63,601 nt of DNA from an uncultured Anaerolineales bacterium (GTDB taxonomy: Bacteria > Chloroflexota > Anaerolineae > UBA1429). Within the stretch, counting starts at the first letter, position 1, and each line of letters opens with the position of its first letter. Shown here one piece after another: positions 1 through 41,357 of this stretch. Made by a program: the position numbers and the translations under genes. Where the stretch lies: contig CAZYWU010000002.1 in the NCBI GenBank assembly GCA_964651255.1, positions 82,038 to 145,638 of the forward strand. Reading direction: 5' to 3'. A model generated the notes under the pieces. It was given only the letters and a program-made list of their open reading frames with translations. It was not told the DNA's origin and did no database searches.

Positions 1-1360
1 GGAGCGCATGGTGATCGCGGCGCCTCCGGAGAACGAGGCACGCCTGCGCGAGATCTGCGATGCTCACTCCGTCGAGATGACCGTCATTGGCACTTTTACA
101 GGCGATGGGCGACTGCACTTGCGGTACGGTGAGAACATCGTTGCGGACCTTTCCATGGCGTTCCTCCACGGCGGTTTGCCGCGCCGGCATCTGACAGCCA
201 CGTGGTCAGCCCCCGCCATCAGCCAGGGACACACAGATGGACTCGCCGGGGACGAGCTGGCTACCTGCCTGCTGGCCATACTATCGGATGCCAACGTCCG
301 CAGTAAGGAGGACGTGATCCGGCGGTATGACCATGAGGTCCAAGGGGGCACAGTGGTCAAGCCGATGGTCGGGACGCGGGCGCATGGCCCCGGCGATGCG
401 GCAGTGATCCGTCCGCTGGACACGTCGGACTCGTGGCAGGGGTTCGCCCTCGGGGCTGCCTTCAACCCCGCCTACGGCGACCTCGATCCATACGCCATGG
501 CCATCTCAGCCATCGACGAGGCTGTGCGCAACATCGTCTGCGTAGGCGCTGATCCCGACCGCACAGCGATTCTGGACAACTTTTGTTGGGGCAATCCGGG
601 CTATCCGGATAGGCTCGGCACACTGGTACGGGCCCTGAAGGGTTGCTATGACGGCGCGATGGCCTATCGCACACCCTTCATATCAGGCAAAGACAGCCTC
701 AACAACGAATACATGGACACAGTGACGGGGCATCAGGTCTCGATACCGCCCTCGCTTTTGATTTCCTCGATCGGCTTGATGGACGATGTGCGCAGCGCGT
801 GCACCCCCGATCTCAAGACAGCGGGCGATGCCATCTACCTGCTCGGCGAGACCAGGCCCGAGTTGGGCGGCAGCCTGTACGCCGCGCTGGGACATGCAGC
901 AGGGTTCGCCCCCCCAGGCCAGGCACCGGCAGGCCCCGCCATCGCGAGAGCCTTGCACCGTGCCATAGTGGCGGGCCTGGTCGCCGCCTGCCACGACTGC
1001 TCCGAGGGAGGCGCAGCCGTCGCTCTCGCAGAGATGGCCATGGCGGGCGACCTGGGTGCGGAGCTGCACGTGGCGTTGATGCCACGATCCTCGCAGCAGG
1101 ATCTCGCCACCGACACGCTGCTATTCTCCGAATCCAACGCTCGCTATCTCGTCGAGGTACGCGAGCCGGATCGACCAGCCTTCGAAGCGGTGTGTGAGGG
1201 CCTGCCCTGTGCCTCCGTTGGGCGAGTTGTCGATGAACAAAGCATCACCGTGTATGGGGCTCAAACAGACAATCCCGAGTTCACACTCTCTCTGGAAGCC
1301 ATCGAGAGGGCCTGGCGAGGGCATATAGCACCCGTGCCCGCCGCGGAGGCGTTGCCATGA
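1..1360 (+). CDS. purL: Phosphoribosylformylglycinamidine synthase subunit PurL, C-terminal part (5'-partial)
   Basis: Frame is open from the window edge (ERMV...). PurL motifs: YDHEVQGGT, DEAVRN, LDNFCWGNP, ISGKDSLNN, HDCSEGG, LFSESNAR. First gene of the pur cluster. Confidence 0.95.
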   Translation, partial: ERMVIAAPPENEARLREICDAHSVEMTVIGTFTGDGRLHLRYGENIVADLSMAFLHGGLPRRHLTATWSAPAISQGHTDGLAGDELATCLLAILSDANVRSKEDVIRRYDHEVQGGTVVKPMVGTRAHGPGDAAVIRPLDTSDSWQGFALGAAFNPAYGDLDPYAMAISAIDEAVRNIVCVGADPDRTAILDNFCWGNPGYPDRLGTLVRALKGCYDGAMAYRTPFISGKDSLNNEYMDTVTGHQVSIPPSLLISSIGLMDDVRSACTPDLKTAGDAIYLLGETRPELGGSLYAALGHAAGFAPPGQAPAGPAIARALHRAIVAGLVAACHDCSEGGAAVALAEMAMAGDLGAELHVALMPRSSQQDLATDTLLFSESNARYLVEVREPDRPAFEAVCEGLPCASVGRVVDEQSITVYGAQTDNPEFTLSLEAIERAWRGHIAPVPAAEALP

Positions 1361-2175
1361 CGCATCCACGCATCCTGATAATGCACGCGCCCGGCACCAA
1401 CCGTGACCGCGAGGCAGCCATGGCGTGTACCGCTGCGGGGGGCATGCCTGAGATCATACACATGAACAGGCTTGTCAGCGGCCAGGTCAAACTGGACGCC
1501 TATCAGATGATCGTCATACCCGGGGGATTCTCCTTTGGCGATGACCTGGGCGCCGGACGGCTCTGGGCGAACGACTTGACCCTCCACCTCCGCCAGGAAC
1601 TGGACGCCTTTGTGGCCAGCGGCAAGCCGGTGATGGGCATATGCAACGGCTTCCAGGTGCTGGTCAAAGCCGGATACCTGCCGGGACCGGCCCCGCTGCA
1701 AACTGCGAGCCTGACCTATAATCGCGGAGGCCACTTTGAGTGTCGCTGGGTACGACTTCGCGCCCTGCCGCAAAGCCCCAGTGTGTTCACACAGGGTTTG
1801 GATCAGGACATCCTTTGTCCCGTTGCCCATGGCGAGGGGCGGCTGGCGCTGCGAGAACCCGGGCAGGCCGCAAGTCTGATTGAGAGCGGCCTGGTGCCTC
1901 TCCGGTACGTGGCAGTGCTGAATCCTGGTGACGAGGATAACGCATCGGCTGACACACCGGTGGAGCCCGTGGCAACCTATCCGCACAACCCTAATGGCTC
2001 ACCGGCGGATATCGCGGCACTCTGCAACGCAGCGGGCAACGTACTCGGGCTGATGCCCCACCCTGAGGATCACATCCATCCGTTCCAGCATCCACGCTGG
2101 TCGCGCGGAGCGACCGGGGGACTGGGGTTGGTGCTCTTTGCCAACGGCGTGCGGGCTGCCAGGGCTTTTGTCTAG
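1357..2175 (+). CDS. purQ: FGAM synthase glutaminase subunit PurQ
   Basis: PGTNRD, GGFSFGD, GICNGFQ (catalytic Cys), AHGEGR, LMPHPE (His-Glu). ATGA overlap with purL. Confidence 0.96.
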   Translation: MTHPRILIMHAPGTNRDREAAMACTAAGGMPEIIHMNRLVSGQVKLDAYQMIVIPGGFSFGDDLGAGRLWANDLTLHLRQELDAFVASGKPVMGICNGFQVLVKAGYLPGPAPLQTASLTYNRGGHFECRWVRLRALPQSPSVFTQGLDQDILCPVAHGEGRLALREPGQAASLIESGLVPLRYVAVLNPGDEDNASADTPVEPVATYPHNPNGSPADIAALCNAAGNVLGLMPHPEDHIHPFQHPRWSRGATGGLGLVLFANGVRAARAFV

Positions 2176-2190
2176 GAGAGTCGCGGTAGC

Positions 2191-3600
2191 ATGACAGAGT
2201 ACAGTCACGACACGTATATCTCGCCCTTTACCTGGCGCTATGGCAGTGACGCCATGCGACAGATCTGGTCACAGCTGCATCAGCGCCGGTTGTGGCGCCG
2301 AGTCTGGGTGGCTCTCGCGAGTGTGCAGGCTGAGGCAGGCCTGGTCACAGAGGCGCAGGTTGAGGACCTGCGTGCCCATCAGGATAACATCGACTGGGAG
2401 CGCGCCCAGGAGCTCGAACGCGACTTGCACCATGATCTCATGGCAGAAGTACGCGCCTACGCGGAGCAGTGTCCCATCGGTGGCGGCATCATTCACCTGG
2501 GCGCGACAAGCATGGACATAGAAGACAACGCAGAAGCGATGCGCATCGTCCAGGCGTTGAGACTGGTGAGACAGGGACTGGTGTCTCTTTTGCTGGCACT
2601 GGTCGAGCGCATGGAGGCCGAGGCCGACACGACGGCCATGGCCTATACGCACATCCAACCCGCTGAGCCGACCACCATCGGCTACCGGCTATCGCAATAT
2701 GCTTACGACCTGCTGTGTGACCTCCAGAGCCTGGATGCGCTGACGGTGTACGGCAAGGGCTTTAAGGGGGCCGTAGGCACCTCTGCTTCATACGCGCACC
2801 TGCTGGAAGGCACGGGCATGAGTTCCGCCGAGATGGAGGAGCGGATCATGCAGCGCCTGGGGCTCACAGCGGTACCCGTGAGCACCCAGACGTACCCGCG
2901 CAAGATGGATTACAGCGTCCTCACCTTGCTGGCAGGCATCGCCGCATCGGCGCACAAATTGGCCCTGGACCTGAGATTGCTCCAGTCGCCGGTGTTTGGC
3001 GAGCTGTCCGAACCCTTTGGCCGGCAGCAGGTCGGCTCGTCAGCGATGCCCTTTAAGCGGAACCCGATCAACGCCGAGAGCATCTGCTCGCTGGCACGAT
3101 ACGTTTCGACGCTTCCTCAGGTCGCCTGGAGCAATGCAGCTCTATCCATGCTCGAGCGCACCCTCGACGATTCGGCGAATAGACGAGCGATTCTGCCCGA
3201 CGCTTTTCTGGCCATCGACGAGATCCTCACGAGGTTGACCCGCATTATCCAGGGGCTACAGATCGGACGTGAGGCGATCGCGCGGAATCTTGCGATCTAT
3301 GGGCCCTTTTCGGCAACCGAGCCACTGCTCATGGAGCTCGTCAAAGCCGGTGCCGACCGGCAGGCGATGCACGAGACGATTCGTCGCTGCAGCATGGCGG
3401 CCTGGGCCGCCATTCAGGCAGGGCAACCGAACCCCTTGATCGATCTGTTGGCTGCAGACGAAAACGTACTGCGATGGCTGCCGGCCGAGACCGTGCGCCG
3501 TGTTCTGGGGCGCGGTGCTGACACTGGCGACGCAGCATCGCGCTGCCTCGCGCTGACCGATCGCATTCGAGACTATACGCGGAAGCGTCCGCCGGCGTGA
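2191..3600 (+). CDS. purB: Adenylosuccinate lyase (ADSL-like subfamily)
   Basis: IHLGATS, YTHIQPA, GSSAMPFKRNP signature; pur operon context. Confidence 0.96.
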   Translation: MTEYSHDTYISPFTWRYGSDAMRQIWSQLHQRRLWRRVWVALASVQAEAGLVTEAQVEDLRAHQDNIDWERAQELERDLHHDLMAEVRAYAEQCPIGGGIIHLGATSMDIEDNAEAMRIVQALRLVRQGLVSLLLALVERMEAEADTTAMAYTHIQPAEPTTIGYRLSQYAYDLLCDLQSLDALTVYGKGFKGAVGTSASYAHLLEGTGMSSAEMEERIMQRLGLTAVPVSTQTYPRKMDYSVLTLLAGIAASAHKLALDLRLLQSPVFGELSEPFGRQQVGSSAMPFKRNPINAESICSLARYVSTLPQVAWSNAALSMLERTLDDSANRRAILPDAFLAIDEILTRLTRIIQGLQIGREAIARNLAIYGPFSATEPLLMELVKAGADRQAMHETIRRCSMAAWAAIQAGQPNPLIDLLAADENVLRWLPAETVRRVLGRGADTGDAASRCLALTDRIRDYTRKRPPA

Positions 3601-3627
3601 GCCGTCAGGGCAAAAGGAGTCATTGAC

Positions 3628-4392
3628 ATGAGCTACAAAACGATGTTCGGAGAGCGCCTCGCGGAGGGCAAGACCAAGATCGTCTACGCCCATCCCACGC
3701 GCCATGACATGGTCTACCTGGTGCACAAGGACCGAATCAGTGCCGGTGATGGTGCCAGAGTCAACGAGGTGCCAGGCAAAGGCGAGCTGGCCTGCCGCAC
3801 GACATCGAACGTTTTTTACGTACTGGAGCAGGAAGGTATCGATACCCACTATGTGGGGCTGGTCGAGCCAGGGGTGAACCTGGTGGTGCGCTGTGAGATG
3901 GTGCCATTGGAAGTAGTGATGCGCCGCATCGCCACCGGGTCGTACCTGAAGCGACATCCCGAAGTCAAAGAGGGACACCGCTTTGACCCGCCCCTGGTAG
4001 AGTTCTTTTTCAAGAGCGATGAGCTGCACGACCCCCTGGTGGATGATGACGAGATCAAACAGATGGGCCTCGCAGAGCAGCGTGAGATCGATGAGATGCG
4101 CCAGACTGGCCGCCGGGTATTCGCGATTTTGGAAAAGGCCTGGGCCGGACAGGGCGTGACCCTGGTGGATCTCAAGATCGAGTTCGGACGCGATACTGAA
4201 GGAACGCTGATGGTGGCTGACGTTATCGATAACGATTCATGGCGGCTCTGGCCTGGCGGGGACAAGAATCGCATGTTGGACAAACAGGTTTACCGCGACA
4301 TGCCCGATGTCACGGACGAGGGCCTGCGCGCGCTCATGAGCAAGTACGCTCAGGTGGCCGCACTTACCGACAAGTTCATCGAGGAAGAGTAG
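3628..4392 (+). CDS. purC: SAICAR synthetase, PAICS/Ade5-type
   Basis: EGKTK, RRIATGS, DLKIEFG, DVIDNDSWRLWP, DKQVYR. SD AAGGAG upstream. Confidence 0.96.
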   Translation: MSYKTMFGERLAEGKTKIVYAHPTRHDMVYLVHKDRISAGDGARVNEVPGKGELACRTTSNVFYVLEQEGIDTHYVGLVEPGVNLVVRCEMVPLEVVMRRIATGSYLKRHPEVKEGHRFDPPLVEFFFKSDELHDPLVDDDEIKQMGLAEQREIDEMRQTGRRVFAILEKAWAGQGVTLVDLKIEFGRDTEGTLMVADVIDNDSWRLWPGGDKNRMLDKQVYRDMPDVTDEGLRALMSKYAQVAALTDKFIEEE

Positions 4393-4425
4393 CGCACGGG
4401 CACCGTAATGTTGCCAGGGGTGAGA

Positions 4426-4938
4426 ATGTCTGGTAGACTAATTATTATAATGGGTTCGCTGGCCGACCGGGATCACGTGAACAAGATCGTGGAGGCGTGC
4501 GCTTCTTTTGGATTGGCAGTTGAGCAACATGTGGCCTCGGCGCACAAGAGCGCCCGCTATCTGCTCGATCTTCTGCAGGCGCAAGAGAACAAGGGCGAAA
4601 ACGTCGTCTATATCACCGTCGCCGGCCGTTCCAACGCTCTGAGCGGTATGGTCGATGCGAACGTCAGCGCCCCGGTGATTGCGTGCCCTCCCATCTCCAG
4701 CGCCTTTGGCGGTGCAGATATCTACTCCTCGTTGCGGATGCCAACCGGAGTTGCCCCTCTGTTGGTGCTCGAACCCACAGCCGCTGCGCTTGCCGCAGCG
4801 AAAATCCTGTCGCAGAGTGATGATGCCCTCCGACAGACCGTGCGAAGGTATCAGGCTTCGCTGACTGAGCAAATCATCCATGACGATGGCGTCCTCGGTC
4901 TGGAGCAGCGTGGATCGGCGGGCGAAAGGACGATATGA
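4426..4938 (+). CDS. purE: AIR carboxylase PurE, class II-like (alternative in-frame ATG at 4408)
   Basis: IIMGS, SAHK, AGRSNAL, PVIACPP, SSLRMP. AGGGG SD-like sequence before ATG 4426. Confidence 0.92.
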   Translation: MSGRLIIIMGSLADRDHVNKIVEACASFGLAVEQHVASAHKSARYLLDLLQAQENKGENVVYITVAGRSNALSGMVDANVSAPVIACPPISSAFGGADIYSSLRMPTGVAPLLVLEPTAAALAAAKILSQSDDALRQTVRRYQASLTEQIIHDDGVLGLEQRGSAGERTI

Positions 4939-6383
4939 CGATTTGTGATTTTGAGCATGCGGACCATCCGCACGAGGAGTGCGGTGTTTTCGGCATCTAT
5001 GCCCCGGGCGAGGCGGTAGCCCGGATAACCTTTTTCGGACTGTTTGCCCTGCAGCATCGCGGCCAGGAGAGCGCCGGCATCGCTGTCACGGACGGCTACA
5101 CAGCGCGACTCCACAAGGACATGGGCCTGGTCACTCAGGTCTTTAACGAGACGAATCTGGCGCCGCTACAGGGCCACATTGCGGTGGGCCATACCCGTTA
5201 CTCCACCGCCGACTCGTCGCGTCCGGTGGCCGCGGGCCCGTTCCTGCTCGAATCGATGGTGGGGCCGATTGCGCTGGCGCACAATGGCAACCTGGTAAAC
5301 ACGGGCGAGTTGCGCCGCAAGCTCTTTGAGCGGGGCGTCGGCCTGGCGTCGAGCTGTGACTCTGAGGTAATCATCCAGATGCTCGCCGGGGCACAGGGCG
5401 ACAATATGGTGGACCGCATCAAAGAGATGATGAGCATGGCCCTGGGGGCTTATTCCCTCACGGTACTCACCCGTGACGCTCTCTATGCGGTACGTGATCC
5501 CTGGGGATTCCGGCCGCTGAGCATGGGGCGACTGAACGGTGGTTGGGTGGTAGCCTCGGAGAGCTGCGCGCTGGAGACCGTGGGTGCACGCGACATCACC
5601 GAGATCGCCCCCGGGTCGATTGTGATGATGGATGCCAGCGGTGCGCGCATCGTTCAGGGACGCAAACCAGAAAAGTCCAGCCTGTGCATCTTTGAGTACA
5701 TCTACTTTGCGCGACCGGACAGCATCATCGACGGCCAGCTGGTTCACGATGTGCGCCAGGAGCTCGGACGCCAGCTGGCCCGAGAGCATCCCGTCGATGC
5801 CGACCTGGTCATGGGTGTTCCGGACTCGGCCACAGCGGCGGCGATTGGCTATGCGCAGGAGGCGGGCATCCCCTTCGGGGAAGGCCTCATCAAGAACCGG
5901 TATATCGGCCGCACGTTCATCCAGCCCGATGATCGCCTCCGCAAGGCCGGCGTCGCACTCAAATTCAACCCGCTGGCACAGGGCCTTAAGGGCAAGCGTC
6001 TGATTGTGGTCGATGACTCGATCGTTCGCGGTAACACAACCGCGCCCGCTGTAGAGCTCCTCAGGCGGGCGGGAGCGCGCGAGGTGCACCTGCGCATTTC
6101 ATCGCCCCCCATCAAGCACCCTTGCTTCATGGGGGTCGATATGGCCACCTACGGTGAGTTGATCGCACATCGCATGACGATCGAGGAGATCAGGCAGCAT
6201 GTTGGCGCCGACACGCTGGGCTACCTCAGCCTTGAGGGTATGATCAAGGCGCTGCACAGACCCAAGGAGCGTTACTGCACAGCCTGTTTCTCTGGAGAAT
6301 ACCCCTTCGAACAAAGGGCGGGCGGCTTTCTGGACAGGGAGATGCAACCCTGTGGCGTGACGGGGAACGCGTCATGCCTGTAA
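4935..6383 (+). CDS. purF: Amidophosphoribosyltransferase (propeptide, Fe-S type)
   Basis: Propeptide then CGVFG, QHRGQESAG, GHTRYST, HNGN, VDDSIVRG, HPCFMG and YCTACF Cys ligands. Confidence 0.97.
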   Translation: MTICDFEHADHPHEECGVFGIYAPGEAVARITFFGLFALQHRGQESAGIAVTDGYTARLHKDMGLVTQVFNETNLAPLQGHIAVGHTRYSTADSSRPVAAGPFLLESMVGPIALAHNGNLVNTGELRRKLFERGVGLASSCDSEVIIQMLAGAQGDNMVDRIKEMMSMALGAYSLTVLTRDALYAVRDPWGFRPLSMGRLNGGWVVASESCALETVGARDITEIAPGSIVMMDASGARIVQGRKPEKSSLCIFEYIYFARPDSIIDGQLVHDVRQELGRQLAREHPVDADLVMGVPDSATAAAIGYAQEAGIPFGEGLIKNRYIGRTFIQPDDRLRKAGVALKFNPLAQGLKGKRLIVVDDSIVRGNTTAPAVELLRRAGAREVHLRISSPPIKHPCFMGVDMATYGELIAHRMTIEEIRQHVGADTLGYLSLEGMIKALHRPKERYCTACFSGEYPFEQRAGGFLDREMQPCGVTGNASCL

Positions 6384-7660
6384 AGGTACTTGTCGTCGGA
6401 TCGGGCGGCAGGGAACACGCGCTGGCGTGGGCACTCAGCCGCTCGCCCCAGCAGACCGAGCTGTACGCTGCCCCGGGCAACGGTGGGACGGCGGCCATTG
6501 CCACCAATGTACCCATCAAGGCGGAGGACGTAGCGGGGATCGTGTCCTTCGCCCGCGACAAAGAGATCGATCTGGTGGTCGTTGGCCCGGAGGCTCCGCT
6601 TGCGCTGGGCCTGGTGGACCAGCTCCAGGCCGCGGGTATCCGCGCCTTCGGGCCGAGCGCAGCCGCCGCGCGTATCGAGGCATCCAAGGCATTCAGCAAG
6701 ACCTTTATGCGCGAACATGGCATCCCGACGGCAGCCTATGGCAATTTCACCGACTATGGCTCCGCCCTATCGTATCTGGACGCTCACCCGGTCCCGATCG
6801 TGCTCAAAGCCGATGGGCTCGCCGCGGGCAAGGGTGTCCTGGTCTGCGAGACAGATGATGAGGCGCGCGATGCCTTGCGAGCGATCATGGTCGACCATCG
6901 CTTTGGCGCCGCCGGGGATCGCGTCGTCATTGAGGAATTCCTGACAGGGCAGGAAGTCTCGGTGCTCGCCTTTTCAGACGGAAAACATGTCGAACCGATG
7001 CTCTTGTCACAGGATCATAAAGCGGCCTACGACGGCGATCGCGGCCCCAACACCGGCGGCATGGGGTGCTATGCTCCTGCGAACATTCTGAACCCGCCGA
7101 TGCTGCAACGTGTCGTCGCTGAGGTCCTGCAGCCGACCGTCGACGGGCTCGCAGCGGCCGGGACGCCCTATGTGGGGGTCCTGTACGCTGGCCTCATGAT
7201 CCAGGACGATGACTTTACTGTGCTCGAGTTCAACTGCCGTTTTGGAGACCCCGAAGCGCAGGTCATTCTACCGCTGCTTGAGACCGATCTGCTCAGTGTC
7301 CTGGAAGCGTGCGTCGCTCAGGAGCTCGATCAGATCGGACTGCGTTGGACGGGCAAAAGCGCCGCCTGCATCGTCCTCGCATCGGGCGGCTACCCGGGTG
7401 ACTATGAGCGCGGGCTGGTCATCGAAGGGCTGGATAGCGTCCCGCAAGGCGACGATCTGATCGTGTTCCATGCAGGAACGCGCCAGGACGGCAAACGCCT
7501 GATCACCGACGGCGGGCGCGTGCTGGGCGTGACTGGCATCGCCGACAACCTGCGGGACGCTCTCTCAAAGGCCTATGCCGCCGCGACGAAAATTCACTGG
7601 CCAGGGATGTTCTACAGGCGCGACATCGGAGCCAAAGGGCTGGCGCAGGAGGGCCGATGA
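6374..7660 (+). CDS. purD: Phosphoribosylamine-glycine ligase
   Basis: GSGGREHAL, APGNGG, KADGLAAGKGV, GPNTGGMG, EFNCRFGDPE, YRRDIG. Confidence 0.98.
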   Translation: MPVKVLVVGSGGREHALAWALSRSPQQTELYAAPGNGGTAAIATNVPIKAEDVAGIVSFARDKEIDLVVVGPEAPLALGLVDQLQAAGIRAFGPSAAAARIEASKAFSKTFMREHGIPTAAYGNFTDYGSALSYLDAHPVPIVLKADGLAAGKGVLVCETDDEARDALRAIMVDHRFGAAGDRVVIEEFLTGQEVSVLAFSDGKHVEPMLLSQDHKAAYDGDRGPNTGGMGCYAPANILNPPMLQRVVAEVLQPTVDGLAAAGTPYVGVLYAGLMIQDDDFTVLEFNCRFGDPEAQVILPLLETDLLSVLEACVAQELDQIGLRWTGKSAACIVLASGGYPGDYERGLVIEGLDSVPQGDDLIVFHAGTRQDGKRLITDGGRVLGVTGIADNLRDALSKAYAAATKIHWPGMFYRRDIGAKGLAQEGR

Positions 7661-8688
7661 CCGGGAACGCATACGCACGGTCAGGAGTAAACATCACCGC
7701 CGGAAACCGGGCTGTCGAGTTGATGGCCGCCTCGGTGCGCTCCACCTACGGTCCCGAGGTCCTGCTGGGTATCGGCGCCTTTGGCGGGCTGTTTGACGCA
7801 TCGCGGCTTCAATCCATGTCCCATCCCGTGCTGGTGGCATCCACCGACGGCGTGGGCACCAAAACGGTCGTCTCCGGTGCGCTGGGGTGCTACGAGCATC
7901 TCGGACGGGACATCGTCAACCACTGTGTCAATGACATCCTGGTACAGGGAGCCGAACCCCTCTTTTTCCTTGATTATGTCGCTTCCCCTCACCTGGACCC
8001 GCAGCTGGTCGCAGAAGTGGTCTCTGGAGTGTCGGCCGCATGCCGGGAAGCGGGCTGTGCCCTCCTGGGTGGCGAGACGGCAGAGATGCCGGGCGTCTAC
8101 GCCCCGGGGCAAATGGATATTGCCGGCACCATTGTGGGCGTTGTCGAACGCGACGAGATCATCGATGGCACCCGGATCGTCGCCGGTGACGCACTCATCG
8201 GGCTGGGCTCACACGGCCTTCATACCAATGGCTTTTCTCTCGTCCGGAGCATATTCTCCGCAGACGACTATGGCAGGTTCAGCGAGGTGCTGGGCTGCTC
8301 GCTGGGAGAGGCCCTGACCAGGCCGCATCGTTCCTATCTTACGTTGGTGCGCGCCATCCGCCGTGTCGCAGACATCAAAGGGCTGGCACACCTCACCGGC
8401 GGGGGCTTTATCGAGAATATCCCCCGCATCCTGCCGCAGGGTCTCGGCGCCCGCATCGATCGCCGCAGCTGGGTAGTGCCCCCGCTCTTCGAGTTGATTC
8501 AAACACACGGCCAGGTAGACGCACTGGAGATGTACCGCGTCTTTAATATGGGGATCGGGATGGTCGTGGTCGTCGCCCCGGAGGACGTGGAAAAAGTACA
8601 GACTGTGGTCGCCAGCGATGCGGGCGAGACTGCGCCCGTCATCGGCGAGATCGTGACCTCTGGCGAGGGGCCACGCGTCACGCTATGA
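7657..8688 (+). CDS. purM: AIR synthetase
   Basis: Y..SGV, TDGVGTK, GGETAEMPG, HTNGFSL, HLTGGG, FNMGIG. Confidence 0.97.
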   Translation: MTGNAYARSGVNITAGNRAVELMAASVRSTYGPEVLLGIGAFGGLFDASRLQSMSHPVLVASTDGVGTKTVVSGALGCYEHLGRDIVNHCVNDILVQGAEPLFFLDYVASPHLDPQLVAEVVSGVSAACREAGCALLGGETAEMPGVYAPGQMDIAGTIVGVVERDEIIDGTRIVAGDALIGLGSHGLHTNGFSLVRSIFSADDYGRFSEVLGCSLGEALTRPHRSYLTLVRAIRRVADIKGLAHLTGGGFIENIPRILPQGLGARIDRRSWVVPPLFELIQTHGQVDALEMYRVFNMGIGMVVVVAPEDVEKVQTVVASDAGETAPVIGEIVTSGEGPRVTL

Positions 8689-9299
8689 ACCATCTGGCTG
8701 TATTCATCTCCGGTACTGGCACCAACCTGCAGGCCATCATCGACGCGATAGAGTCGGGCCGGCTGCCAGACACGCGCATTTCTGTGGTCGTCTCCAACAA
8801 AAAAGCGGCACAAGGCCTGCAGCGCGCACACAGACACAACATCCCGACCATGTACTTGCCTTTTTTGCCGTACCGTCAGCAGGGTTTGTCCAGAGAGGAC
8901 TATGACCGGGATCTCGTGGCGAGACTGAGCGAATACCCCATAGATCTGGTTGTCCTGGCCGGATGGATGCACATCTTTAGTATGGTATTCCTCCAGCACT
9001 ACCCGCGGGTGTTGAACATACACCCCGCTCTGCCTGGCACCTTTCCAGGGACGCATGCCATCGAGGATGCCCTGCGGGCGTTTCAGCGCGGAGAGATCAC
9101 AGAGACCGGTGTGATGGTCCACTGGGTGCCGGACGAGGCTGTCGATAGCGGGCCCGTAGTCATGTCAGAGGTTGTGCCGATTTACCCGCAGGACACACTG
9201 GAAACTCTGGAGGAGCGGATTCACGCTGTGGAGCACGATCTCTACGTACGTGCGATCGCCAGCGTCCTCGGCGTCGAGTTGAACGAACGCCCCGGGTAA
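8685..9299 (+). CDS. purN: GAR formyltransferase
   Basis: ISGTGTNLQAIID, LAGWMHI, NIHPALP, GVMVH, DSGP. Confidence 0.96.
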   Translation: MNHLAVFISGTGTNLQAIIDAIESGRLPDTRISVVVSNKKAAQGLQRAHRHNIPTMYLPFLPYRQQGLSREDYDRDLVARLSEYPIDLVVLAGWMHIFSMVFLQHYPRVLNIHPALPGTFPGTHAIEDALRAFQRGEITETGVMVHWVPDEAVDSGPVVMSEVVPIYPQDTLETLEERIHAVEHDLYVRAIASVLGVELNERPG

Positions 9300-9351
9300 T
9301 ACGGTCAACGAGCATCCCTGGGGCTCTACTTTACAGCACAGGACGGACCGG

Positions 9352-10077
9352 TCAGTTCAGATTCACCGTGCGGCGCAGGATCGCCGAGTGCAAGTCCGAG
9401 GTGCACCGCTCACAGAATCCCCAGCCCCCGGCGCCTTCCTCCAGCGCAAACGCCACCAGTTGATCGAGCGTCTCTGCATGGCGCATGACGCAGCGGTTGG
9501 TGCAATGCATCTCAAGCCCGCGTCGCGACACGTGGACACGTTCATCGAACCGCGGCACTGCGAGGAGATGTCCGAGATGATGCCGCACCAGGCGGGTCAG
9601 CGCCAGCGTCTTGAGCTCCGAGGACTCTAGCGCGCGCAGGCGATAGACGGACATGACCGCCGCACGCTCAGGATAGCTCGTCCCCAGGCTGTAATAGTCA
9701 GCGCGCTTGCGCGCCAACGGAGCCGGCATATCCGTGAGATCATCATCTATGAGGGCCAGATCAAGATGGGGATCAGCCTTCTGCCAGGGCTCATTGCTCA
9801 CCAGTTCCAGGAATTCAGGGGCCACTACGCGATCACTTTCCCCGTCGTAGGTGTTGTCGATGTACCACTGCGTCCCCCAGTAAGGATACTGATCCATCAG
9901 CGAAGGGATAACCCAGTTACCATAGACCTGCACGCGCAGCGGCGGATCGAAAAATACATCAGAACGCCTAAAGTAGAGCCAGTTCAGGGTTTGATATACC
10001 GCCTGAACAAAGACCTCGGCCTCGAGATCGCTCACACCTTGAGACCATGCAAGGGTCAAGGATGAATCCATATCCAT
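9352..10077 (-). CDS. Archaemetzincin-like zinc protein with HHLGH in place of HExxH (start 10077 or 10071)
   Basis: RHHLGHLL...HCTNRCVM...FCERC resembles the archaemetzincin HExxHxxG..CxxxCxM..CxxC pattern. Catalytic Glu codon is CAT (His) at 9577-9579. Confidence 0.65.
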   Translation of the reverse strand: MDMDSSLTLAWSQGVSDLEAEVFVQAVYQTLNWLYFRRSDVFFDPPLRVQVYGNWVIPSLMDQYPYWGTQWYIDNTYDGESDRVVAPEFLELVSNEPWQKADPHLDLALIDDDLTDMPAPLARKRADYYSLGTSYPERAAVMSVYRLRALESSELKTLALTRLVRHHLGHLLAVPRFDERVHVSRRGLEMHCTNRCVMRHAETLDQLVAFALEEGAGGWGFCERCTSDLHSAILRRTVNLN

Positions 10078-10262
10078 CTCTTCCAGTGTAACTGCGGCGT
10101 AGCGGAGCGGGCAACACCTTACCGGCACTGAGCACCAGAGCCATTATGCCACGCTCAAGGGGCTAAGCCAAATGGCGGATATCATAGATTTGGTGTAAGC
10201 TGCGGCGCACGGTAACATATGTCGGCTCGTCAAGCTATCTCTATACCGATCAAGGAGGCAAC

Positions 10263-14339: not shown

Positions 14340-14368
14340 TTGCGGAGGCCTGTCACGTGTGGTATAAC
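14340..14368 (+). promoter_or_regulatory. sigma70-type promoter of prs
   Basis: TTGCGG-N17-TATAAC with extended -10 TG. Confidence 0.65.
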
Positions 14369-14414
14369 AGCACGGTCTTTGACCAACACAAAGCGCAAGG
14401 AGCATCTCGACGGC

Positions 14415-15395
14415 ATGGATAACGAAGAGAATACCTGGCTGCGGAATAATCTGCGCATCTTTGGGGGCGCTTCGCACCCGGAGCTTGCTCAAGACATCGC
14501 CGAATACCTTCAAGTTCCGCTGTGCGAACACACGACTTCTCGCTTTAGCAACGACAATATGTACGTGCAGCTGCTGGAGAGCGTGCGCAGCAAGGATGTG
14601 GTCATCATCCAATCCTTTTCGCCACCCAACGTGAGCGACAACATCATCGAGCTGCTGATGATGATGAATGCCGCCGCCAGCGCTTCCGCCCGATCCATCC
14701 ATGCCGTTATCCCTTACTATAGTTATGCCCGTTCCGACAAAAAGGACGAGCCCCGCATATCGATCGCAGGGCGCCTGATGGCCGACCTCATCGCAACCGC
14801 GGGAGCAACGCACGTGATGACGATGACGTTGCACTCACCGCAGGTGCATGGCTTTTTCAGCGTGCCTACAGATCACCTCACGGCGCGCCCCGCCTTTGTG
14901 CAGCATTTCCGAAAGCAGGACCTCAGCAACACCGTTGTCGTTTCTCCGGATATCGGCCATGCCAAGCGCGCCACCTCACTGGCCCGCAATCTGGGTGTCG
15001 GCGTTGCCGCCGGCGACAAGACGAGGGTGTCGGACACCGAGGTGGTGCTCAACACCATCATCGGCGATATCAAGGGCAAGGATGTGATCGTCTTTGACGA
15101 CGAGATCGCCACAGGAGGATCGATCATTGCCCTGGTGCAAGCGCTCCGCCACGAGGGCGTGAGGCGCATCACCCTTTCCTGCACCCACGGTGTGTTCTCC
15201 GGCAACGCGATCAATCTGCTGGATGAGCTGGATGTCGCCGAGATTGTGACCACCAACACGGTGCCGATCCCCGAGCACAAACGGCTCCCCAACATGACGG
15301 TCCTCTCAGTGGGGAGTATATTCGGGCAGGCGATACACTGTAACCTCATGGGTCGCTCGGTGGGCCAGCTTTTTGCCTTCTGGCACGAGCAGTAA
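14415..15395 (+). CDS. prs: Ribose-phosphate pyrophosphokinase
   Basis: ESVRSKDV, PYYSYARSDKK, LHSPQVHGFF, VVSPDIG, DDEIATGGS, THGVFS, TNTVP. Confidence 0.95.
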   Translation: MDNEENTWLRNNLRIFGGASHPELAQDIAEYLQVPLCEHTTSRFSNDNMYVQLLESVRSKDVVIIQSFSPPNVSDNIIELLMMMNAAASASARSIHAVIPYYSYARSDKKDEPRISIAGRLMADLIATAGATHVMTMTLHSPQVHGFFSVPTDHLTARPAFVQHFRKQDLSNTVVVSPDIGHAKRATSLARNLGVGVAAGDKTRVSDTEVVLNTIIGDIKGKDVIVFDDEIATGGSIIALVQALRHEGVRRITLSCTHGVFSGNAINLLDELDVAEIVTTNTVPIPEHKRLPNMTVLSVGSIFGQAIHCNLMGRSVGQLFAFWHEQ

Positions 15396-15423: not shown

Positions 15424-15451
15424 TTGACCCTGTTACCGACGACCCTATAAT
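15424..15451 (+). promoter_or_regulatory. Near-consensus sigma70 promoter of the ychF paralogue
   Basis: TTGACC-N16-TATAAT. Confidence 0.75.
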
Positions 15452-15482
15452 GTCTCTCTGTGGTTCGAATCCGCAGGGAGAC
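15452..15482 (+). promoter_or_regulatory. 12-bp hairpin with TTCGAAT (tRNA T-loop) loop covering the RBS
   Basis: GTCTCTCTGTGG-TTCGAAT-CCGCAGGGAGAC is fully paired (2 G-U). GGGAG lies in the 3' arm; ATG at 15489. Confidence 0.6.
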
Positions 15483-15488
15483 ATTTTC

Positions 15489-16574
15489 ATGCAAATCGCC
15501 CTCATTGGATTGGCTCAATCCGGCAAGACGACGCTGACCACAGCGATGACCAAGGGGCGCGCCGAGACATCCGGCGGGCGTCGCGGTCGCGTGGAGATCA
15601 AAAGCGCGATGGTCGACGTTCCGGATGCGCGAGTCGACCGCCTGACAGAGATGTTCCAGCCTCGCCGTACGGTGTACGCACAGGTGCGCATCGACGACAT
15701 CACCGGCGTGAACCGTGGTACGGCGGCCCAGACGGGCTTTGATGCACAGGTGCTCGATGCTCTCAGCCGGGCCGATGCGCTCATGTTGGTGGCACGCGCT
15801 TTTGAGGACGATACCGTCCCCCACCCCGATGTAACCATCGATCCCGTGCGAGATATCGAGACGATCAATCTCGAGCTGATCATGAGCGATCTGACGATCA
15901 TCGAGCACCGTATCGAAAGAATCGAGGCGCAAATCCCCAAAGCGAGAGCTGATGCGCGGGACCGCTTGTCCGAGGAACTGGGTCTCATGCGACGCCTCGC
16001 GGATGCATTGAGCCGCGGACAGCCGGTACGGTCCGTTGACCAAAGCCCGGAAGAGGAGGTCTTTCTCCGCAGCTTTCAGTTTCTGACGGCTAAGCCTGCT
16101 CTGGTGGTGCTGAACCTGGGAGAAGACGCTGCCCCCTTTGACCCGAACAGGTGGCCCGGCCTTCCTGAGGGCGATCCAGTGCTGGGGATTCGCGCCGCCG
16201 TCGAGAGAGAGATATCCGAGCTACCCGAGGACGAGCAAGCGCTCTTTTTGGAGAGCTACGGCATTGACGAGCCGGGCCTGCATCGGTTGCTGCGGGAGAG
16301 CTACCGGTTGCTCGGCCTCATGTCCTTTTTCACCGTTGGCGAGGACGAAGTGCGAGCCTGGACCGTGCGCCGCGGCGCGAACGCCGTGGAGGCCGCGGGC
16401 GCCATCCACACAGATCTCGCCCGCGGGTTCATTCGCGCCGAAGTGATCAGCTACGAGGACATGCTGGCCTGTGAGACCATGGCTGAGGCTCGCAAGCGCG
16501 GCAAACTTCGCCTCGAGGGTAAGGACTATATCGTGCAGGACGGCGACATCCTGAACATTCGCTTTAACATCTAG
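15489..16574 (+). CDS. YchF/DUF933 family ATPase, divergent paralogue
   Basis: P-loop GLAQSGKTT, DxxG, FLTAKP, SFFTVGEDEVRAW, IHTDLARGFIRAE, EGKDYIVQDGD (TGS-type C-terminus). Confidence 0.9.
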   Translation: MQIALIGLAQSGKTTLTTAMTKGRAETSGGRRGRVEIKSAMVDVPDARVDRLTEMFQPRRTVYAQVRIDDITGVNRGTAAQTGFDAQVLDALSRADALMLVARAFEDDTVPHPDVTIDPVRDIETINLELIMSDLTIIEHRIERIEAQIPKARADARDRLSEELGLMRRLADALSRGQPVRSVDQSPEEEVFLRSFQFLTAKPALVVLNLGEDAAPFDPNRWPGLPEGDPVLGIRAAVEREISELPEDEQALFLESYGIDEPGLHRLLRESYRLLGLMSFFTVGEDEVRAWTVRRGANAVEAAGAIHTDLARGFIRAEVISYEDMLACETMAEARKRGKLRLEGKDYIVQDGDILNIRFNI

Positions 16575-20831: not shown

Positions 20832-21929
20832 ATGGCACTGCAACTGGGACTGGTGGGACTGCCCAATGTTGGCAAGACTACCCTGTTCAACGCTCTAACA
20901 CGCGCCGGCGCGATGGTTGCCAGCTATCCCTTTACCACCATCGACCCCAATGTGGGGGTTGTACCTGTCCCTGACCCCCGCCTTGACCGCATTGCAGAGA
21001 TCATCGCTCCCCAGGAAGTGGTGCCCGCTAGTATGCGCGTGGTGGACATCGCCGGACTGGTGCGTGGCGCCAATACTGGAGAAGGCCTTGGCAACCAGTT
21101 CCTCTCGCACATTCGGGCCGTCGACGCGATCGCCATGGTGGTGCGCTGTTTTGAGAGCGGCGAGGTAGCACATGTAACCGAGGTCCTGGATCCGATAGAG
21201 GATATCGAGACCGTACAGCTGGAGTTGATCCTGTCTGACCTGGCGCTGCTGGAAAGACACATGGAGCGCGTTCAGACAAGGGCCAAGGCTGCACCCCGCG
21301 AATACGCCCACGAGATCGCCGCGCTGGATAGCATCGCCTATCGTCTACAGAGTGGACAATGGCTTCAAAAGGAGACGCTGGACGAACACGAGATTCAGGC
21401 AATCGCCGGATTGGACCTTCTGACGATCAAACCGCTGATCTATGTCGCTAACGTTGACGAGCATAACCTGCCCGACGGTGGCGCACTGGCGTCCAGGGTC
21501 AGCAGTTACGCCGCTGCCCATGGCAGTCCCTGTGTGATCGTGTGTGCCCAGGTAGAGGCAGACCTGGCGGAGTTCCCGCCTGAAGAGGCCGCCCTCCTGG
21601 CACAGGAGATGGGGATTGGGGTTGGCGGGCTCCGGCAGCTGATTGCTGTGGGGTATCGTACGCTCGACTATATCACCTTCTTTACTACCACCGGAGAAAA
21701 GCAGGTACGCGCCTGGGAGCTCCAGCGGGGCAAAACCGCCCTCGATGCTGCCGCCCGTGTGCACTCTGACCTGGCTCGTGGATTCATCCGGGCCGAAGTG
21801 GTCAGCTTCGCTGCGCTGGACAGGGTCGGCTCAATCGCGCGTGCCCGCGAACAGGGGCTGCTCCGTCTTGAGGGACGCGACTATGTGGTCGAGGATGGCG
21901 ACATCATCCACATCCGGTTCGCGCTCTAG
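20832..21929 (+). CDS. ychF: Redox-regulated ATPase YchF (canonical)
   Basis: GLPNVGKTT, YPFTTIDPN, DIAGLVRGA, GEGLGNQFL, NVDE, GFIRAEVV, EGRDYVVEDGD. Confidence 0.95.
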   Translation: MALQLGLVGLPNVGKTTLFNALTRAGAMVASYPFTTIDPNVGVVPVPDPRLDRIAEIIAPQEVVPASMRVVDIAGLVRGANTGEGLGNQFLSHIRAVDAIAMVVRCFESGEVAHVTEVLDPIEDIETVQLELILSDLALLERHMERVQTRAKAAPREYAHEIAALDSIAYRLQSGQWLQKETLDEHEIQAIAGLDLLTIKPLIYVANVDEHNLPDGGALASRVSSYAAAHGSPCVIVCAQVEADLAEFPPEEAALLAQEMGIGVGGLRQLIAVGYRTLDYITFFTTTGEKQVRAWELQRGKTALDAAARVHSDLARGFIRAEVVSFAALDRVGSIARAREQGLLRLEGRDYVVEDGDIIHIRFAL

Positions 21930-34501: not shown

Positions 34502-34577
34502 GCCCCAGTAGCTCAGAGGATAGAGCAGAGGTTTCCTAAACCTTGTGCCGGGGGTTCAACTCCCTCCTGGGGCACCA
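34502..34577 (+). tRNA. tRNA-Arg(CCT)
   Basis: Acceptor GCCCCAG/CTGGGGC, D arm GCTC/GAGC, anticodon loop TTCCTAA, T loop TTCAACT, encoded CCA; 76 nt. Confidence 0.97.
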
Positions 34578-34724
34578 AACCCCATCCACCATCTGAGCCT
34601 CCCGATATTAGCATCGATATCCATCGCAGACCAGACGCGCTGCGCAGCTGCGCCCCGCGAGCTTGCCCTGCCGCCCCAACTCCGAGTAGAATGCAGACCA
34701 GGATCGTCACGCGATTGCCTTGTG

Positions 34725-35060
34725 ATGGTTCGATCTCGGACTCTCGACAAGTCCAGCATTCTGCAGGCACTGGCCCAGGGGCACTTTAGCGGCACGGGGC
34801 CAGTCATTGAGGAACTCACAGTCGTGACATCACACCATGGCCAGCGGGAGCTTCACGTGCGTTGCAGCCCGTGCCAGCAGATCATCTTTTATGCTGTGGA
34901 TTCGCGCGGGCAGCGGTTTGTTGCCGCTTCCGGTGATCGTGTGACCCATGCACGCCTGTCCATTCAGCCCGAGCAGATCTATGTCCGGGTAGAGTGTCGC
35001 GACCACGGGTCAGGCTGTGCCTGGAGCAATCCTGTGTATGTCACTGATGTCGTGAGCTAG
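34725..35060 (+). pseudogene. C-terminal fragment (or standalone domain) of a PHP/CehA-McbA-type metallohydrolase
   Basis: MVRS..LD..SIL.AL..GHF..TGP ... YVRVEC.D..GCAWSNP matches the C-terminus of such hydrolases. No N-terminal PHP His motifs upstream. Confidence 0.5.
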
Positions 35061-39520: not shown

Positions 39521-39667
39521 GGCACCTCCATCCGTATCAGTGTATTGAGTCTAGCCAGACCAGCGCGCACGGTCAAGCCTTGCCCCGGCTGCCTCCGGCT
39601 CCTTGCTTGATCGTATCACCGGCTGCGGCTAGAATGGCGATACGACTCGATATATGGAGACGACATC

Positions 39668-40726
39668 ATGCCCGTGGAAACCATGACCTCTCGCGAACGC
39701 TGGCAGGCAGTACTGGAGCATCGCCTGCCTGACCGTGTCCCCACGGACTACTGGACCACCGACGAGGCACACAGTCGCCTCAAGTCGTATCTCGGCATCG
39801 CGGATGACGAGGTGCTGTACGAGACGCTCCATATCGACCGGCCCTTTACCGTCAGCCCGCGCTACGTCGGCCCCCCGCTGCCAGTGGATGAGGACGTATA
39901 TGGCATCCGCTACCGGCTTGTAGACTATGGTGCGGGCGTCTATCGAGAGGCGATCACCAATCCGCTGGCGACGTACACCTCAGTGGCGGAGATTGAGCAA
40001 AACTACCGCTGGCCGAGCCCGGAATGGTGGAGTTACGACCATCTTCCGGCTCAGATACGCGGGCATGAGCGGTCACCGATACGCGGAGGAGGGTCTGAAC
40101 CGTTTTTGACCTATAAGGATTTGCGCGGCGATGAGCAGGCTTATATGGATCTCATCCTGTATCCAGAAATCGTACACTATTGCCTGGACAGGCTCTTTGA
40201 GCTCGCCTACCAGAATACGCTGCGTATCTATGAGGCCATTCCCGGCCAGGTCATGATCACCTACATCGCTGAAGATATGGGCAGCCAGTCGAGCCTTTTG
40301 TTTTCGCCATCCCAGATACGCACATTTCTGTTGCCGCGCATGGCAAGAATGATGGACCTGGCGCATCAGGCGGGAGCCTACGTATTTTTCCACAGCGATG
40401 GTGCGGTGCGCCCGATTCTGCCCGACATGATCGCGACGGGCATCGACGTACTGAACCCCATCCAGTGGCGCTGCGACGGGATGGATAGGTCGGGTCTCAA
40501 AGCTGATTTTGGAGACCAGATCGTCCTGCATGGTGCCGTCGACAACCAGCAGACGCTCCCCTTTGGGACGGTTCAAGACGTCCGCAGCGAGGTCATCGAA
40601 AACATAGAGATTCTCGGCGCAGGCGGCGGTTATATCCTGGCCCCGTGCCACAACATCCAGGCGATCACCCCTCCAGAGAACACCATCGCCATGTACAAAG
40701 AGGCCTTTGCCTCAGGCTGGTACTAG
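39668..40726 (+). CDS. Uroporphyrinogen decarboxylase-family (MtaA/CmuA-like) protein
   Basis: PDRVP, ED.GSQ..LL.SP, FHSDG, GID.LNP.Q, G.VD.Q..LP.GT, GYILAPCHNIQ. Confidence 0.85.
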   Translation: MPVETMTSRERWQAVLEHRLPDRVPTDYWTTDEAHSRLKSYLGIADDEVLYETLHIDRPFTVSPRYVGPPLPVDEDVYGIRYRLVDYGAGVYREAITNPLATYTSVAEIEQNYRWPSPEWWSYDHLPAQIRGHERSPIRGGGSEPFLTYKDLRGDEQAYMDLILYPEIVHYCLDRLFELAYQNTLRIYEAIPGQVMITYIAEDMGSQSSLLFSPSQIRTFLLPRMARMMDLAHQAGAYVFFHSDGAVRPILPDMIATGIDVLNPIQWRCDGMDRSGLKADFGDQIVLHGAVDNQQTLPFGTVQDVRSEVIENIEILGAGGGYILAPCHNIQAITPPENTIAMYKEAFASGWY

Positions 40727-40751
40727 TTCCGTACCCCGGAGGTCGCTGAAT

Positions 40752-41357
40752 ATGTATATCGGACGTTTCGTACTCGCAGGCCGCACACCATCTGGCCGTC
40801 CCTTTCTGGGGTACCGCGTGTCATCCCGTTCCTTTCCCAATCGCAGAATACTGCTGACAGCAGATGCGGCCGTCGTGCTGCCTACCGCCGACGCACCAGC
40901 CAGTGACAATCCGTACATCGCCTATCACTGCATGCGCACGCACGGCACCACAACGGTTGTCGCCAACGGCAGTCATGTTGACCCCATTATCGAAAAGGTC
41001 GCGGCGGGGTATCCGCTGCGCGATGCCCTCGCCCTGTCCCTTTTCGCACTGGACTATGAACATGACAGCTACAATACCCCACGAATCGCGGCGGCCTGGG
41101 GACAGGAACTGGCTTATCTCGCGATCATTACGCCAACCATCCTGGCAGTCCAGAGTGTCGAGCCACTGCCTGGAACGGCCATGTTGATCTCCACTTATGA
41201 GCTGGTTGAGCCAACGCCGGTCAAGATCACAGGTGAGACTGCGCAGGACCTCGCCATGGCAATTCACACCTTGCCTTACGAGCATCCGGTCGCTTCTCTC
41301 GCCACCCTGCTTGGCAACCCGAACGACTCTGCCGTGCTGGGCGCCGACAGCCTCTGA
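40752..41357 (+). CDS. purO: Archaeal-type IMP cyclohydrolase PurO
   Basis: 201 aa; MYIGRF, YRVSSRSFPNR, NPYIAY.C, NGSH, DYEHDSYNTPRIAA match the methanogen PurO family as recalled. Confidence 0.88.
   Translation: MYIGRFVLAGRTPSGRPFLGYRVSSRSFPNRRILLTADAAVVLPTADAPASDNPYIAYHCMRTHGTTTVVANGSHVDPIIEKVAAGYPLRDALALSLFALDYEHDSYNTPRIAAAWGQELAYLAIITPTILAVQSVEPLPGTAMLISTYELVEPTPVKITGETAQDLAMAIHTLPYEHPVASLATLLGNPNDSAVLGADSL

Follow-up and report, generated by a model that had tools for sequence, protein, structure and literature searches.

Archaeal-type IMP cyclohydrolase PurO encoded in an Anaerolineae genome apart from a pur cluster without purH

Known PurO enzymes and the product of the window purO gene

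Archaeal PurO is an IMP cyclohydrolase of demonstrated activity that complemented an E. coli purH2 mutant (PMC6797443). Methanogens, among them M. thermautotrophicus (PurO MTH1020; PDB 1KUU, 2NTK, 2NTL, 2NTM) and M. jannaschii (MJ0626), have a formate/ATP-dependent PurP; halobacterial purO (Brown et al. 2011; Cruz et al. 2019) belongs to folate users that combine PurO with a PurH1/PurV-type transformylase and carry a purV-purN fusion. For bacteria, Cruz et al. 2019 described 22 purO genes, the products of which form a clade ~74% divergent from archaeal PurOs (PMC6486802). Ser24 and Tyr56 are 100% conserved in archaeal PurOs only; in the bacterial type, Tyr56 is usually replaced and Ser24 is variable (PMC6486802). 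Bacterial purO is anticorrelated with purH and is usually paired with purV, a gene for a standalone AICARFT. Both purV and purO are present in 19 of the 22 purO-bearing bacteria and in Halobacteria, and purH is found alongside purO in 3–4 of the 22 bacterial genomes (PMC6486802). The bacterial type, known from Firmicutes, Actinobacteria, Spirochaetes, Fibrobacteres and Epsilonproteobacteria, replaces the cyclohydrolase domain of PurH while the standalone PurV is kept; it has neither the YRVSSRSFPNR nor the NPY signature, and its gene often lies inside the pur operon. The same reaction is catalyzed by PurJ, the standalone MGS-like IMP cyclohydrolase domain of PurH, which has an unrelated fold and sequence and is thus an analogue of PurO.

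We analyzed a 63.6-kb stretch of DNA (the window), in which a preliminary description had recognized a 201-aa ORF as an archaeal-type PurO and a nine-gene pur cluster as lacking purH. Features are listed in Table 1, with positions counted from the first letter of the window.

Table 1. Genes and signals of the window considered in the text
Feature	Position	Strand	Evidence
pur cluster of nine genes, ending at purN, without purH, purJ or purV	8..9299	+	NCBIfam scan, tblastn negative
purL' (C-terminal 450 aa, cut by window start)	8-1360	+	
purQ	1357-2175	+	
purB	2191-3600	+	
purC	3628-4392	+	
purE	4408-4938	+	
purF	4935-6383	+	
purD	6374-7660	+	
purM	7657-8688	+	
purN	8685-9299	+	
prs (ribose-phosphate pyrophosphokinase), PRPP supply to the pathway	14340..15395	+	PF13793, PF14572
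Sigma-70-like promoter candidate TTGATC-17-TAGAAT, upstream of the URO-D-like gene	39607..39635	+	Consensus scan only, weak
URO-D/MtaA-fold gene, 352 aa, probably co-transcribed with purO	39668..40726	+	PF01208, AF2 fold, gene order
GGAGG Shine-Dalgarno, 9 nt before the purO ATG, within the 25-nt gap after the upstream gene	40738..40742	+	Read from sequence
purO, archaeal-type (Ntn-fold) IMP cyclohydrolase, 201 aa + stop	40752..41357	+	HMM, fold and residue evidence

The intact 201-codon ORF contains MYIGRF, YRVSSRSFPNR, NPYIAY, NGSH and DYEHDSYNTPRIAA, that is, every motif quoted in the preliminary description. Since MYIGRF opens all homologues and the GGAGG precedes it, the ATG at 40752 is the real start. 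In the HMM comparison of the archaeal with the bacterial family that had been proposed for this ORF, the PurO equivalog models were passed: the purO product scored 210.9 bits (E 1e-62) against TIGR01922 'purO_arch' and 225.3 bits (E 5e-67) against NF003167 of NCBIfam, which have curated cutoffs of 158.35 and 150, respectively. Pfam PF07826 matched residues 1–186 with 193 bits (E 5e-57; cutoff 28.1), and PDB 1kuu/2ntk aligned to residues 1–184 with an E value of 4e-39. The NCBI and JGI pipelines already name Anaerolineae homologues of the product 'IMP cyclohydrolase'. No purine or ZTP riboswitch or other regulatory RNA was found near purO. Judged from its sequence, the ORF encodes a genuine PurO-type IMP cyclohydrolase, for which catalysis is predicted.

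The AF2 model of the window PurO (pLDDT 88) matched 2NTK, 1KUU and 2NTM in Foldseek with TM values of 0.84–0.86 and an rmsd of 2.6–2.8 A; further matches were Ntn hydrolases only, with TM values of 0.5 or less. The window protein thus has the Ntn-type fold in common with M. thermautotrophicus PurO (TM 0.86), and it belongs to the same equivalog family as this enzyme and MJ0626, with the same length and ~46% identity. Kang et al. reportedly proposed in 2007 a catalytic Arg, Glu and Tyr for PurO together with 13–14 contact residues. Residue matches were judged here against archaeal conservation and not against the published list of substrate contacts. In an alignment of 48 named archaeal PurOs, 48 columns reach at least 95% conservation; the window PurO has the same residue in 46 of them, and every conserved Arg, Glu and Tyr among these columns is kept. 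The two departures are N60H, private to the window PurO, and K105H, common to the whole Chloroflexota clade; these and a URO-D-like gene neighbor are among the differences from the methanogen PurOs, with which the motifs YRVSSRSFPNR, NPYIAY, NGSH and DYE..NTPRIAA are shared. The archaeal-type Ser24, Ser26, Asn54 and Tyr56, positions named in PMC6486802, are also common to both. The best explanation is that the window PurO would bind its substrate and catalyze the reaction with the residues that the M. thermautotrophicus enzyme uses, and from family identity, fold and residue conservation we infer that it is enzymatically active.

In identity, the window PurO stands at 46–47% to the PurOs of Methanobacteriales and Halobacteria and at only 25% to the bacterial-type PurO encoded in the pur operon of a related locus (L172). 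Because the archaeal residues are kept and the identities differ in this way, the protein is an archaeal-type PurO in a bacterium, and the type assignment of the preliminary description is upheld. The traits of the bacterial type are not those of the window protein, which retains both Ser24 and Tyr56 and has archaeal-level identity; PF07826 and the presumed reaction are common to the two, as is the logic of replacing the PurH cyclohydrolase domain, but the window purO lies outside the pur operon. The searchable literature holds no mention of archaeal-type PurO in Chloroflexi and, as far as it shows, no report of an assay of any archaeal-type PurO from a bacterium. The locus thus adds one more lineage, and a new sequence type as well, to a bacterial pathway variant described already in 2019 (PMC6486802).

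Distribution and origin of the Chloroflexota PurOs

The PurO family is small: in a set of 1.84 billion representatives, it accounts for 283 clusters (50% identity, E up to 1e-3). When one genome per GTDB species was scanned, archaeal-type PurO was found at 55–86% identity in 31 Chloroflexota/Anaerolineae genomes (at least 31 species). The next matches, at 43–50%, were from Halobacteria, Methanocellales, Methanosarcinales and two Lentisphaeria/Victivallales MAGs. The PurOs of these two MAGs (L046 9570-10202; L054 10001-10594) are 96% identical to each other, 52% identical to that of M. thermautotrophicus and 47% identical to the window PurO, and by sequence the MAGs appear to represent another bacterial lineage that has archaeal-type PurO independently.

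A phylogeny, which had been proposed together with the HMM search, gave a divided answer: neighbor-joining placed the Chloroflexota PurOs in a single clade with 96% bootstrap, but gave neither a supported position of this clade nor a stable root. Halobacteria have the highest mean identity to the clade (47%) and stand beside it in the point-estimate tree with 12% bootstrap; the root, unstable with one bacterial-type outgroup, was placed on the stem of the Chloroflexota in 81 of 200 replicates. Of the earlier claim of a horizontally acquired archaeal enzyme, the archaeal sequence type therefore stands, and an archaeal origin is plausible.

Given this root position and the 12% support, an old bacterial lineage of archaeal-type PurO is possible. 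The Chloroflexota PurOs would then not derive from archaea: they would have been inherited vertically from an ancient PurO already present before archaea and bacteria diverged, as in the model of Cruz et al., or the gene would have passed from bacteria to archaea. The composition agrees with this explanation, since the GC, GC3 and codon usage of purO are inside the range of the neighboring genes and show no recent transfer. Several results speak against it. The type is confined to part of the Anaerolineae and the two Lentisphaeria MAGs, whereas it occurs in many euryarchaeal orders; the Chloroflexota clade is about as close to the archaeal PurOs as these are to one another (mean identity of 42–47% to each archaeal order, against 44–49% among the archaeal orders), yet the PurO in a related bacterial pur operon is at the 25% given above. 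In addition, the residues reported as 100% conserved in archaeal PurOs only are present, and related Chloroflexota clusters use purJ instead. We regard a non-archaeal origin as unlikely. It is plausible that the ancestor of an Anaerolineae sub-clade acquired purO once, in ancient times, with a euryarchaeon as the most parsimonious, presumed donor.

Cruz et al. reasoned that lateral transfer from archaea would give archaeal-like similarity, which was not seen in their 22 bacterial PurOs (PMC6486802). The Chloroflexota clade and the two Lentisphaeria MAGs show that archaeal-like pattern, which qualifies their proposal that 'PurO predates the domain split'.

Purine genes of the window and of related clusters

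The nine-gene pur cluster is real (window 1-9299), as is the absence of purH from it, and purJ, purV and purP are absent as well. In the entire 63.6-kb window, tblastn with E. coli PurH and with the PurV and PurJ of loci L113 and L118 found no PurH, PurJ or PurV, and Pfam scans of the other long ORFs of the window gave no PF02142, PF01808 or PurP, in agreement with the earlier expectation that the transformylase is encoded outside the window. Contigs carrying the exact PurQ of the window were sought for the region upstream of purL, and none is on record. The cluster lies upstream of purO at a distance of 31 kb. Outside the window, purO is likewise found apart from the pur cluster, with no pur neighbor in 31 of 31 Chloroflexota loci, and in 82 loci tblastn detected no purH, purJ or purV in the 10 kb flanking purO on each side. 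The window purN is a standalone gene of 204 aa, unlike the purV-purN fusion of Halobacteria. Two minor points concern the cluster itself: purK and purS are not visible in it (purL is truncated at the window start, and purS may lie upstream), and the window PurE, PurC and PurQ score just under the NCBIfam equivalog cutoffs.

A metagenome scan around PurN revealed that clusters of the same order (purL-Q-B-C-E-F-D-M-N) with 62–96% identity all end at purN, whereas those at 54–58% identity (L111, L113 and L118) continue past it. In L118, purN is followed by a standalone purJ and then secA; in L113, by purJ plus purV; and in L111, by a truncated purJ/purH. More distant pur clusters have a full purH or a purV-purN-purJ arrangement. 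With the PurV of L113 as query, we found at least 120 clusters of 415–416-aa PF01808-only PurV proteins, 76–84% identical, in Anaerolineae, Thermoflexales and Chloroflexota MAGs. PurV of this type adjoins purJ on the long contigs L170, L171 and L174 and stands at the end of the pur operon with bacterial-type purO in L172; among the at least 120 matches listed at 76–84% identity, none was on a PurO-bearing contig. Based on these purJ and purV arrangements, a split purH is the norm in this Anaerolineae group, and the PurV family works with alternative cyclohydrolases. Since the window host is a bacterium with folates, PurV is expected as the partner of its PurO rather than the PurP of methanogens. 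The contrast between the clusters ending at purN and the relatives with purJ(-purV), together with the widespread PurV, makes it most likely that PurO displaced PurJ and that its partner PurV is encoded elsewhere.

Some further observations were made on these clusters. The L172 operon (1-11251; GCA_040961635.1, JBFOMZ010000235.1) consists of purL, a 352-aa ORF, purQ, purC, bacterial-type purO, purE, purF, a purD-purM fusion (780 aa), purN and purV (416 aa), with no visible purB; its 352-aa ORF has no Pfam match, and the suspicion, raised by the identical length, that it is a homologue of the URO-D-like protein was rejected, the two being unrelated. NCBI calls several AICARFT-only proteins of 415–420 aa (PF01808, without MGS/IMPCH; P0396, P0509, P0510 and P0512) 'IMP cyclohydrolase'; by their domain content, this is probably a misnomer, and they should be named AICAR formyltransferases (PurV). 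The present name hides the real division of labor. The Anaerolineae PurV has the motif KHNNPSG where E. coli PurH has KHxNPCG. The purV gene of L113 (2478-3728) contains one in-frame stop after ...NCLNILR, probably an assembly error or a pseudogene, its homologues being uninterrupted at 415–416 aa. Contigs from digester runs gave dozens of partial matches to purJ and purV, which, coming from mixed communities, carry no attribution to the window organism.

If a full-length purH or purJ were present outside the window, PurO would be redundant and would serve as an accessory or back-up cyclohydrolase. The DNA read amounts to 63.6 kb with the pur cluster cut inside purL, purO is unlinked to the pur genes, and the 3–4 bacterial genomes with both purH and purO (PMC6486802) are a precedent. 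However, the position after purN that distant relatives keep for purJ/purH has been lost from the same-order clusters of the PurO sub-clade, strong purifying selection has acted on purO in at least 31 species, and the anticorrelation of purO with purH is the published general pattern (PMC6486802). Redundancy therefore seems improbable to us. From the 63.6 kb read and the related clusters, we infer that the host genome probably contains purV and has neither purJ nor purH elsewhere.

Taken as a whole, we consider it probable that PurO closes the purine ring in this organism, that it displaced PurJ, that its partner PurV is encoded elsewhere, and that the gene goes back to one old entry from a euryarchaeon. 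According to this model, purO would be translated from its own Shine-Dalgarno, probably from one transcript with the URO-D-like gene 25 nt upstream, and its product would convert FAICAR to IMP and water in an Anaerolineae bacterium of anaerobic digesters. The preceding formylation of AICAR would be carried out by the 416-aa, folate-dependent standalone PurV from outside the window. The replacement of PurJ by PurO would be a non-orthologous displacement in a lineage in which purH was already split. The purO gene would have entered this lineage a single time in the distant past, and a euryarchaeon is its most probable source. The patchwork of the last two purine steps thus appears to be extended, with PurJ, bacterial-type PurO or archaeal-type PurO used within one phylum, and at least PurJ and bacterial-type PurO appear to work alongside the same conserved standalone PurV. 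Tools that judge pathway completeness by purH only will wrongly call the abundant digester Anaerolineae purine auxotrophs.

The URO-D/MtaA-fold neighbor and other genes of the window

The conserved URO-D-like neighbor is the only truly unexplained part of the locus. In 29 of the 31 Chloroflexota loci, a gene of this kind lies 15–109 bp upstream of purO on the same strand (loci among L003-L032, L084 and L173), and its product is more conserved (66–94% identity) than PurO while the remaining synteny decays. The URO-D/MtaA superfamily includes folate- and corrinoid-dependent transferases such as MetE and MtaA. The window protein matches PF01208 with 69 bits over residues 137–344 only (the C-terminal 60%) and the MtaA/CmuA models of NCBIfam with 17–47 bits (cutoffs 235–600), falling well short of every NCBIfam cutoff, and its AF2 model (pLDDT 91.5) has a TM of ~0.65 to MtaA and uroporphyrinogen decarboxylases, the best matches in the PDB, and ~0.5 to MetE. 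The zinc site of MtaA is H-x-C...C, and at its position the aligned URO-D-like proteins have H242-S-D244 ... C327-H328, which is invariant in 26 homologues. By sequence and model, the 352-aa protein qualifies as a remote member of the URO-D/MtaA superfamily only.

The URO-D-like gene is preceded by a Shine-Dalgarno and the promoter candidate of Table 1. A consensus scan found no promoter-like site in the 25-nt gap to purO, which holds the Shine-Dalgarno alone; the next promoter-like site follows purO. The arrangement suggests that the two genes are probably co-transcribed. Metatranscriptome contigs were sparse, too few to address co-transcription or to give robust purO expression.

This linkage leads to the question of whether PurO was recruited to another reaction, connected to one or more URO-D/MtaA-fold genes, and is not a purine cyclohydrolase. 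The close upstream neighbor in 29 of 31 loci, the second paralogue downstream in 6 loci and the missing pur neighbors of purO fit such a recruitment. Against it, nearly all positions conserved in archaea are unchanged, reported substrate contacts included, and the scores exceed the equivalog cutoffs. Furthermore, two members of the Chloroflexota PurO sub-clade (L029 and L033) have no URO-D neighbor, and URO-D-like homologues of 67% identity stand alone, without purO, in Latescibacterota and Abditibacteriales. A recruitment is very improbable. Based on the stand-alone homologues and the PurOs without this neighbor, a functional link between the two proteins is possible and not required. Little credence can be given to the more specific idea that the URO-D/MtaA-fold protein is the partner of PurO, as a new C1-transfer enzyme that would make FAICAR from AICAR or supply the C1 donor in place of PurV; in its favor are the folate- and corrinoid-dependent transferases of the superfamily and the fact that, among the PurV matches listed, none could be tied to a genome with archaeal-type PurO.

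Six loci (L010 10789-11532; L020 10816-11556; L024, L026, L027; L173 1182-1925) have the second URO-D-family paralogue at a distance of ~200 bp downstream of purO, which is sandwiched between the two. Over 109 aa, the two paralogues share ~39% identity. The window has no second paralogue, and the gene after purO there is carD.

An artefact, in which an archaeal fragment was mis-assembled or mis-binned into a bacterial contig, has nothing in its favor beyond the archaeal-type sequence itself and is rejected, since purO is flanked by bacterial housekeeping genes of a single contig and this arrangement was seen again in independent assemblies and in at least 20 sequencing runs of several studies. 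The housekeeping genes (prs, pckG, rtcA, dus, carD, mutS, cdsA, uppS, frr, pyrH, tsf, fpg and secA, by Pfam) bear out the bacterial host named in the preliminary description. The nearest relatives of the window are Anaerolineae MAGs, the closest of which keep its synteny, and the locus was found in anaerobic-digester, bioreactor and sludge metagenomes of several studies.

Other features of the window were noted in passing. A tRNA-Arg (CCT) at 34502-34577 (+) is overlapped by a 171-aa ORF (34545-35060) with no Pfam match, which is probably not a gene. Two YchF-type GTPase paralogues (15450-16574 and 20832-21929, +) occur within 6 kb; in the first, Pfam recognizes the C-terminal YchF domain and the TGS domain only. 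The pur cluster is followed by a 258-aa ORF without Pfam match (9352-10128, -) and an 803-aa HEAT-repeat (PBS-lyase-like) protein (10263-12674, +), both 94–95% conserved in the close relative L085; the 258-aa ORF recurs after purN in L093, L099, L102 and L103 at 45–54%.
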